DNA from: Escherichia phage SP1
Strand: one strand, 5' to 3'
Sequence record: PV610739.1
DNA length: 44,529 bases
Shown here one piece after another: positions 16,580 to 16,704 of this stretch. The notes below the pieces were generated by a model that searched no databases, was not told the DNA's origin, and saw only the letters and a list, made by a program, of their open reading frames with translations. Position 1 is the first letter of the stretch. Every line of letters starts with the position of its first letter. Made by a program: the position numbers and the translations under genes.

Positions 16580-16704
16580 GCGGGACGGATCGGGACGTCC
16601 CGCTTTGTCCCGTTTTGTCCCGCCACCTGCAAAACTGCATACCTACTCACTTTCATTGCATAAACTCAAAGCGGGACGAGCGGGACGTCCCGATCCGTCC
16701 CGCC
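16580..16704. repeat. two palindromic iteron clusters built on GCGGGAC / GTCCCGC
   Basis: 16580-16623 and 16671-16704: direct and inverted GCGGGAC copies around perfect palindrome CGGGACGTCCCG; each followed by a TGCATA-containing unit. Confidence 0.7.

Follow-up and report, generated by a model that had tools for sequence, protein, structure and literature searches.

Escherichia phage SP1 (sequence record PV610739.1; its 44,529 nucleotides, all of which were analyzed, are referred to here as the window) is essentially one Dhillonvirus genome, that of a coliphage of the HK578/Sodalis phage SO-1 group. We studied a non-coding gap between two of its tail genes, region A, which holds two palindromic clusters (A1 and A2) of a short CGGGAC(A) heptamer, together with a related repeat region, copy B, which follows the primase-helicase gene. 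Across phage lineages the heptamer type corresponds one-to-one to a signature in the C-terminal winged-helix domain of that primase-helicase, suggesting that the heptamers may be iterons read by the phage's own replication enzyme. Region A is bounded as follows:

16261..16575, plus strand: tail-assembly chaperone T domain (DUF1799), the left boundary of region A
16576-16972, 397 bp: the non-coding region A gap, which separates the tape-measure gene from the T domain of the tail chaperone
16973..19618, plus strand: tape-measure protein gene, the right boundary of region A

The T domain is reached via a -1 frameshift at an A7 run (16251-16257). A stretch of 901 bases around the clusters matched 158 phage records, all of them Dhillonvirus, the best being Escherichia phages Haito_Bas83 and RuthEpting_Bas85 at 99.3% identity. 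The repeat regions themselves are already known from the 2009 GenBank record of SO-1, which labels the gap 'region A', lists direct, inverted and palindromic repeats in it, and notes its similarity with a 'region B' placed after the primase-helicase gene. Other records name part of the gap a repeat_region or a terminator, as in vB_EcoS_WFI, where a 'putative transcriptional terminator' is annotated at the homologous place. A literature search on the motif, Dhillonvirus repeats, Jersey-like origins and P4 crr found no paper describing these elements, and none on Dhillonvirus or Guernseyvirinae origins. A coding function of region A was ruled out, as the longest stop-free stretch in the gap shifts in frame, strand and length (60-131 codons) among close relatives.

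Within the gap, the following features were delineated:

16580..16623, unstranded: cluster A1, five CGGGAC cores in the order -> -> <- <- <-, including the palindrome at 16591-16602
16624..16670, unstranded: AT-rich spacer 1, 47 bp, 62% AT, with TGCATA (16636) and TGCATAAA (16657)
16671..16704, unstranded: cluster A2, cores in the order -> -> <- <-, with the palindrome at 16681-16692
16705..16747, unstranded: AT-rich spacer 2, 43 bp, 65% AT, with TGCATACCTATTC (16714-16726), N8 and TGCATAAA (16735)
16748..16850, plus strand: shared array of copy A, six forward CGGGACA (16748, 16760, 16776, 16786, 16834, 16843) and one inverted GTCCC (16800)
16855..16904, 50 nt, plus strand: long imperfect palindrome of copy A, CAGTCTTTCAGACTAGACGGGGG-loop-CCCCCCTCGTCTGAGACTG
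16928..16936, plus strand: TGATACAAT, which resembles an extended -10 element and lies 37 nt upstream of the ATG of the tape-measure gene

The first-pass annotation of this DNA had described two clusters in which direct repeats abut inverted copies around a perfect 12-bp palindrome, each followed by a unit of ~30 bp, and this anatomy was recovered in full. The palindrome CGGGACGTCCCG is exact at 16591-16602 and 16681-16692 and occurs nowhere else in the window, even with one mismatch (2 copies vs. 0.25 expected; 2 of 100 shuffles reached 2). Each palindrome sits within a cluster of the CGGGAC(A) heptamer, which is itself abundant: GCGGGAC has 23 copies where 8.8 are expected (none of 100 shuffles had as many), and of the 32 copies of CGGGAC, 15 fall in 16581-16848 and 7 in 44258-44358, i.e., 22 in the two repeat regions. 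The units that follow A1 and A2 both read TGCATA-N15-TGCATAAA (16636-16664 and 16714-16742), and TGCATACCTATTC in spacer 2 is the reverse complement of a conserved GAATAG(G/T)TATGCA box. Spacer 1 is a candidate melting region or accessory-factor box. An AT-rich leader runs from the long palindrome to the tape-measure ATG; within it, TGATACAAT is invariant across all aligned Dhillonvirus sequences and may serve as a promoter of its own for the distal tail genes.

Copy B, at the far end of the window, consists of the following parts:

44216..44257, unstranded: box region, 76% AT, GAATAGTTATGCA-N7-TGCATAAA
44258..44360, plus strand: shared array of copy B
44365..44414, plus strand: long palindrome, the counterpart of that in copy A

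Its seven heptamers start ~110 bp past the primase-helicase stop codon, and it is 82% identical to copy A over 197 nt (44223-44419), the two regions being 27.5 kb apart. With arrowheads for the direction of the cores and numbers for their spacing, the shared array reads '>7>11>5>8<30>4>' in copy A and '>7>11>5>9<29>4>' in copy B, the latter being identical in 12/12 readable loci. Copy B is without clusters A1 and A2, and the AT-rich box has iterons on one side only. It does contain a spaced inverted pair, GGCGGGAC-N9-GTCCCGCC (44294-44318), as well as one TTATGCA-N7-TGCATAAA unit upstream of its array. Thus, the earlier statement that the clusters have no counterpart in copy B holds for A1 and A2 as such, but not for the inverted pair and the TGCATAAA unit. 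Likewise, the claim that the palindromes occur only in copy A holds when restricted to the exact palindrome, both in the window and across the 14 readable Dhillonvirus loci, each of which has at least one in region A and none in copy B; it fails in a relative of 68% identity, whose copy-B-type array (L090) carries a palindrome. That the two copies differ in function, as had been proposed, is plausible.

To place region A in an evolutionary context, we surveyed 45 loci encoding a relative of the T domain. The gap measures 357-406 bp and holds 11-14 CGGGAC in 14/14 readable Dhillonvirus loci. In 29 loci of 32-46% identity it spans -1 to 51 bp and is free of CGGGAC. The 68%-identity relative (contig 3300045988_050407), found through its DNA pattern and not caught by the tape-measure-based locus search, also carries the module with palindromic clusters between the T domain and the tape-measure gene. 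Therefore, region A is a lineage-specific insertion, and the palindromic clusters limited to copy A are a lineage-specific elaboration of this repeat system rather than a new kind of element. As a side observation, the same contig (IMGVR_UViG_3300045988_050407, locus L173) has at 2865-3245 an opposite-strand open reading frame (ORF) of 126 aa between the T domain and the region A module, with a signal-peptide-like N-terminus and ATTGGTTGC-type motifs (described below) upstream, resembling a moron insertion.

The genus layout of region A can be written as [>4>0<5<] 50 [>4>0<5< or >9<5<] 47 [>7>11>5>8<30>4>], with inter-cluster distances of 49-51 and 47 bp in nearly all loci. The usual form of A1 has four copies ('>4>0<5<'), the fifth copy of the window (16617) being present in few relatives. 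In 6 of 14 relatives, A2 is swapped for GCGGGACAG-GGGTG-CTGTCCCG, which keeps the hairpin and loses the palindrome, and in two Dhillonvirus loci a palindrome lies within the shared array of region A. At homologous positions the spacing of the inverted pair is 0, 5 or 8-9 nt among members of the genus (A2 being '>4>0<5<' or '>9<5<', and the shared array '>8<' or '>0<'). Since its position is not fixed, occurring in A2, in the shared array and in the copy-B-type array of L090, the palindrome is best described as a -> <- junction with zero spacer. Concerted evolution of both palindrome loops was considered and rejected, the loops of A and B differing in about half of the genomes. The variable spacing also goes against a fixed dimeric or tetrameric binder, which the symmetry had suggested in the first-pass annotation; it would be more readily explained by monomeric winged-helix modules, each tethered on its own, than by a rigid dimer. 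Helicases of the RepA/AAA_25-type class, to which the protein with the putative binding domain belongs, are hexameric.

Conservation was scored as the mean identity of genus members compared pairwise. On this scale the four heptamers usual in A1 reach 0.95-0.97, the forward heptamers of the shared array 0.97-1.0 (apart from the last copy, at 0.74, apparently through an alignment shift) and the TGCATA boxes 0.90. The stems of the long palindrome reach 0.986 around a loop at 0.67. For comparison, the remainder of region A stands at 0.79, flanking codon position 3 at 0.71-0.81, and flanking codon positions 1+2 at 0.95-0.97. These values indicate constraint on heptamers and boxes, strongest on the palindrome, and none on the filler. 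The palindrome stems (16855-16904 and 44365-44414) are in fact the most conserved sequence of the region, above flanking codon positions 1+2. Between lineages their arms change yet stay complementary (proximal AGTCT/AGACT, TCATC/GATGA, TCCTC/GAGGA, TCTCC/GGAGA), and 12/12 versions fold with z-scores of -2.0 to -5.5; pairing was judged by folding each lineage separately, as the MAFFT alignment is out of structural register for a covariation count. In several lineages the apex of the palindrome bears an iteron-like word.

Conservation of this kind bears on the possibility that region A is just a neutral side product, lacking any function, which arose when region B was duplicated illegitimately. 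Its absence from the 29 distant loci and the variable number of heptamers in A1 and A2 would suit such an accident. Nevertheless, it is retained at the same place in 14/14 Dhillonvirus loci and in the 68%-identity relative, its inter-cluster distances are nearly fixed, and its heptamers and palindrome are conserved well above the neutral level, at which the filler lies. We thus regard neutrality as a very improbable account.

The copy B arrangement extends well beyond Dhillonvirus. Relatives with a helicase of only 37-49% identity have the same architecture behind their primase-helicase gene, namely Pantoea phage AH01, Enterobacter phage phiEap-2 and Salmonella phage FSL SP-031 (all Guernseyvirinae), as well as many IMG/VR contigs, and a downstream heptamer array is seen in all of these. 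In order, their module comprises a pair of GAATAGTTATGCA-type boxes at a distance of 21 bp, ~five short repeats, of which the final one or two are inverted, and a spacer of ~30 bp. Two further repeats and the long palindrome come next, then either TTATTCA or TGCATAA, and finally a CGGCA(G/A)C motif and a sigma-70 promoter. In Guernseyvirinae, 1-2 iterons also lie upstream of the box, mostly in the same direction. Given that the Guernseyvirinae share the gene-adjacent module and that AH01 and phiEap-2 have it in a single copy, copy B is ancestral and region A a later duplicate.

Some further repeats were noted around these modules. The CGGCA(G/A)C motif (often ACACGGCA(G/A)CAA, sometimes doubled) is kept behind the palindrome in nearly all lineages, although their iterons differ; in the window it is found at 44440-44447 and 16943-16949, and it also lies downstream of the palindrome in L069-L117. 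In addition, long intergenic gaps of the structural region hold repeat clusters in phiEap-2 (TATTCCA x5; L076, 11841-11898) and AH01 (CTATCAA x4; L075, 12054-12138), neither of which is related in sequence to the iterons.

The gene that copy B adjoins encodes the candidate reader of the heptamers:

41886..44150, plus strand: primase-helicase, 754 aa, with an AEP prim-pol fold, an AAA_25/RepA-type helicase, a C-terminal winged helix and an acidic D-x-D-L tail
43875..44090, plus strand: winged-helix domain, ~residues 664-735, the putative iteron reader, whose KGGT-STKAIDDM signature goes with CGGGACA

The N-terminal 340 aa were modeled by AlphaFold2 (AF2) with a pLDDT of 83.5, and their best PDB match is the AEP domain of the PrimPol of cyanophage S-2L (6zp9, E 4.5e-5). 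The helicase core matches Pfam AAA_25 (RecA-fold, RepA/DnaB-like; 3e-19), and the sole helicase match of the profile, a weak one (E 0.11), is the RepA structure 1g8y. Pfam gave no match in the N-terminal or C-terminal parts of the protein, PDB sequence searches gave no useful match and none to SaPI Rep, and a protein search with a 140-aa C-terminal fragment returned one match only. At the extreme C-terminus (44127-44147), an acidic D-x-D-L-x-D is conserved in all relatives, D102 and L103 of the fragment being invariant; it recalls the tails by which phage helicases and single-stranded-DNA-binding proteins contact their polymerase.

Comparing lineages, we read at least seven heptamer types next to this gene (CGGGACA, CGGACAA, TCCGACA, GGGATAA, GGGGATRA, GGGGGAGA and ACTCGCAA), and, in addition, GCAACCAAC repeats downstream of the helicase gene in locus L073. 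Repeat type and signature at the predicted recognition helix correspond one-to-one:

CGGGACA: signature KGGT-STKAIDDM
CGGACAA: signature GGGNxRRR
TCCGACA: signature DGGRRRPA
GGGATAA: signature AGGNRRPAMKAL
GGGGATRA: signature KGGGRYAALKSL
GGGGGAGA: signature KGGDRYKILKDL

The correspondence is also seen in four swap pairs (AH01/L070, Eap2/L112, L103/L098 and L103/L117), in which the helicase bodies are 94-98% identical, the winged helices 44-63% identical and the heptamers different; the heptamer, then, does not track the helicase body. Between AH01 and L070, the drop in nucleotide identity, from ~90% to ~50%, coincides exactly with the beginning of the C-terminal domain, and identity remains low across the array. 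In the swap pairs of Guernseyvirinae, the last ~100 codons of the primase-helicase and the downstream array are exchanged as one cassette. The rule also had predictive value: FSL SP-031 seemed to lack an array, but L098, with a winged helix 99% identical to its own, led us to expect GGGGGAGA, and the array was then found at 13756-13901. The term iteron, used in the first-pass annotation, is thus apt for a conserved, lineage-specific heptamer that resembles a protein site and co-varies with a DNA-binding domain.

Several other candidate binders were rejected. The upstream XRE helix-turn-helix (HTH) protein is 94-99% identical across three swapped pairs (of note, the HTH_23 protein of Dhillonvirus and the XRE protein of Guernseyvirinae are unrelated, at 12-20% identity), and six CGGACAA phages have mutually unrelated ORFs in the first downstream position. 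Nor does the identity of the small terminase, TerS, follow heptamer type. This last result weighs on the idea that the arrays are pac sites, recognized by the small terminase for headful packaging, for which one could cite the PhageTerm analysis that reported P1-type headful packaging in Dhillonvirus BF9 (PMC10059673). The 5 + 2 layout of the shared array would also lend itself to this role, as the pac site of P1 consists of short repeats in two groups (4 + 3). The TerS of Eap2 and SP031, however, are 60% identical and their heptamers differ, while those of AH01 and Eap2 are 55% identical and their heptamer is the same; moreover, the array is tied to the helicase gene and its C-terminal domain, far from the terminase genes. 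A packaging role is accordingly one to which we give very little credence.

The co-variation could in principle be mimicked by joint recombination, as the winged-helix domain adjoins the array, and this is one of several points that weigh against the heptamers being origin sites of the primase-helicase. The repeated independent swaps and the neighbors that do not co-vary reduce this linkage concern without removing it. Furthermore, the fold matches of the winged helix are generic (Foldseek E 0.01-0.3), and the domains of SaPI Rep and P4 alpha are absent among the fold matches listed. No array was found after the helicase gene in L065, L066 and L072, which have a helicase of the same type, nor in Kagunavirus and Jerseyvirus. 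GC/AT skew tracks gene orientation and is uninformative on the origin. Finally, a functioning origin within a tail operon would be unusual, and region A might be bound without initiating replication.

As single strands, A1, A2 and the long palindrome fold into significant hairpins (z -4.0, -3.6 and -3.2, respectively), and the direct-repeat arrays of the same heptamer show no significant fold (z +1.4 and -1.0). The folds raise the question of a role in RNA, with the hairpins acting as a partial terminator or attenuator after the chaperone genes that would lower tape-measure expression. Besides the strong folds of A1 and A2, such a role would agree with terminator-like sites listed by a scan at 16575-16608 and 16591-16612 and followed by T runs, with the conserved orientation relative to the flanking genes, and with the vB_EcoS_WFI annotation mentioned above. 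Yet the usual genus form of A1 has the TTTT inside the hairpin, as an internal loop, so that the full stem is followed by C-rich sequence and no U tract, and A2 has no T run in many members. A role as an RNA hairpin also does not predict that the direct arrays fail to fold or that the heptamer follows a protein domain across lineages, and Rfam 15 at gathering score gave no match in the whole window. In our estimation termination is an improbable explanation.

Taken together, these observations led us to an origin model, in which we place slightly more belief than doubt. The CGGGAC(A) heptamers would be iterons read by the C-terminal winged helix of the primase-helicase, and copy B, with its AT-rich boxes, ~7 iterons and long palindrome, would be the ancestral, probable origin, at which the enzyme loads itself. 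Region A would be a later, origin-like copy of the B module, inserted between the T domain and the tape-measure gene and extended upstream by the symmetric clusters A1 and A2, each beside an AT-rich TGCATA...TGCATAAA spacer. As the iterons flanking each spacer point outward (<- <- [AT] -> ->), helicase assemblies would be placed on both sides of an easily melted stretch, and after melting A1, A2 and the palindrome could form stable hairpins. The least stable 30-mer of the copy B region starts at 44215 and lies at the 99.97th percentile of the genome; that of region A lies in spacer 2, at the 98.8th percentile. What the comparison establishes is the anatomy of the repeats, their conservation and lineage specificity, and the one-to-one pairing of heptamer and winged-helix type. 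Binding, origin activity and the role of the symmetry are what we infer here, and not with equal confidence: that the heptamers are sites for the winged helix we hold more firmly than the model as a whole, and that A1 and A2 load two hexamers, less firmly.

The closest known parallel is that of the staphylococcal pathogenicity islands (SaPIs). In SaPI Rep and PriRep5, a C-terminal winged helix recognizes iterons of 5-6 nt, 6-12 of which lie directly downstream of rep around an AT-rich center, with at least two opposed iterons per side; two hexamers are thought to load, one per side, and in SaPI5 Rep is fused to a primase (PMC9371898). The phage protein is likewise a helicase with a C-terminal winged helix and iterons downstream of its own gene, the iteron sequence is element-specific in both, and region A, though not copy B, shows <- <- [62-65% AT spacer] -> -> at its spacers. 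In contrast, the phage helicase is of the RecA-fold AAA_25/RepA type and SaPI Rep is AAA+ (SF3/MCM-like), and the phage, a virulent siphophage, has 7-mers, a long conserved palindrome after the array and two copies of the module, one of them in the tail operon.

Satellite phage P4 offers a second comparison, with primase, helicase and a C-terminal winged-helix origin-binding domain in one alpha polypeptide and 8-bp iterons in both orientations at two distant places, ori and the cis-required crr (a tandem 120-bp duplication). The phage similarly combines AEP primase, AAA_25 and winged helix in one polypeptide and has two separate iteron regions, but the primase of P4 alpha is a different one and its helicase belongs to SF3. 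The phage system would therefore seem to resemble a SaPI or P4 origin in its working, without its helicase being a member of the SaPI Rep family. The geometry of A1 and A2, and that alone, also recalls site II of SV40 large T antigen and the sites of papillomavirus E1, where pentamers or hexamers arranged -> -> <- <- around a dyad, with an AT tract and a palindrome, serve two helicase hexamers; those viruses infect eukaryotes, their helicases are of the SF3 class and their origin-binding domain is unrelated. In the IncQ plasmid RSF1010, oriV is served by the RepA helicase, the RepB' primase and RepC, and comprises 20-bp iterons, an AT-rich segment and conserved hairpins (ssi). Helicase family (AAA_25) and the make-up of the origin from iterons, an AT-rich segment and hairpins are alike, the difference being three proteins vs. 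one presumed phage polypeptide. By analogy, a priming role of the long phage palindrome is a matter of speculation.

Iteron plasmids (pPS10, pSC101, F, P1 and R6K) provide a further point of reference, and with it a different view of region A. In these plasmids, direct iterons beside an AT-rich unwinding element form the origin, and inverted copies elsewhere act as operators or other control sites; Rep reads the DNA by winged helices, is not a helicase, and recruits the host DnaB to iterons of 17-22 bp at 22-bp spacing. The phage sites differ in being 7 bp long and irregularly spaced (4-11 bp), with a reader that is part of the helicase. By this precedent, A1 and A2 could be bound by the winged helix for control and not for initiation, be it as a roadblock or operator before the tape-measure gene, as an initiator sink, or by pairing with B (handcuffing, or looping like that of P4 crr). 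Such a function would suit the position of region A in a transcribed operon, just upstream of the invariant TGATACAAT and the tape-measure ATG, and Guernseyvirinae manage with a single module, so that a second origin is no requirement. On the other hand, region A holds a complete copy of the module, including a palindrome with stems at 0.986, and its iterons flank melt-prone AT-rich spacers as in a true origin. We consider control sites an unlikely explanation, if a better one than a terminator.

The AT-rich boxes may involve a second protein. The operator of ARG genes comprises two 18-bp ARG boxes (TGAAT-W4-ATTCA core) 3 bp apart (PMC6640053). Upstream of the array, two GTGAATAGTTATGCA-type boxes 21 bp apart are present in FSL SP-031 (13780-13820), phiEap-2 (39925-39965) and AH01 (45183-45223), and in each genome these boxes are the best match to a double ARG box, with 4, 5 and 6 mismatches, respectively (0 of 200 shuffles equaled them). 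In the window, the best double match has 8 mismatches, a value reached by 48 of 200 shuffles. The TGCATA units of Dhillonvirus (44216-44257 and 16714-16742) are degenerate versions of the double box, and GTGAATAGT is also a putative XRE operator half-site in Kagunavirus. The box may be a site for the ArgR of the host or an operator for a repressor of the phage. The box from which the TGCATA units derive is conserved even between lineages with different iterons, which points to a conserved binder. The notion that they are ordinary promoters was discarded: a sigma-70 scan placed no promoter at them, TGCATA-17-CATAAA matches poorly, and TGCATAAA is followed by a non-conserved base.

A separate motif of the window is the 9-mer ATTGGTTGC, present in 15 copies vs. 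0.68 expected, apparently at gene boundaries and often paired. Its positions are:

40, 71, 30169, 31830(-), 31847(-), 34788(-), 41347, 44162, 44197 and 44479(-)
781(-), 3340(-), 10989(-), 11003(-) and 27106(-)

It flanks region B on both sides, and its TTGC(A/C) part may serve as a -35 element (e.g., 40-48, then TAGATT). It is probably a phage-wide promoter or operator motif. The GCAACCAAC word, with 9 copies after the L073 helicase gene, is related to it.

Recent work on the OLD defense system bears on the origin model. OLD is reported to sense hairpins that single-stranded DNA (ssDNA) forms at the palindromic iterons of the lambda origin, and the mutations of HK578 that escape OLD map to the helicase-primase gene and the promoter of its operon (bioRxiv 10.64898/2026.07.10.737580), data which fit the model. 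One may go further and join these elements into a single scheme, which we put forward tentatively and consider unlikely. In it, two primase-helicase hexamers would load back to back on the AT-rich spacers beside A1 and A2, which would make for a second, bidirectional origin, gained by duplication of the gene-adjacent origin and perhaps used late or as the main one. The melted iterons and the long palindrome would extrude ssDNA hairpins sensed by abortive-infection systems like OLD or Lamassu, and a trigger of this kind would explain how HK578 escapes OLD via mutations in the helicase-primase. The winged-helix and iteron cassette, swapped among otherwise near-identical replicases of Guernseyvirinae, would be a replicon-specificity switch, by which a phage is prevented from firing the origin of a co-infecting relative.

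Of the coliphages and Salmonella phages, those of Dhillonvirus and Guernseyvirinae (Jersey-like) rank with the most frequently isolated, and they find use in therapy cocktails and in defense-system screens. For these phages, our analysis supplies a candidate origin together with a candidate initiator domain and a rule linking signature to heptamer, the same rule that predicted the FSL SP-031 array, and the natural domain-swap pairs are material for specificity experiments. Questions made testable in this way are where OLD binds during HK578 infection, why escapers strike the helicase-primase gene, and whether a RecA-fold (SF4-type) helicase may load itself via a winged helix, as the AAA+ Reps of SaPIs do.

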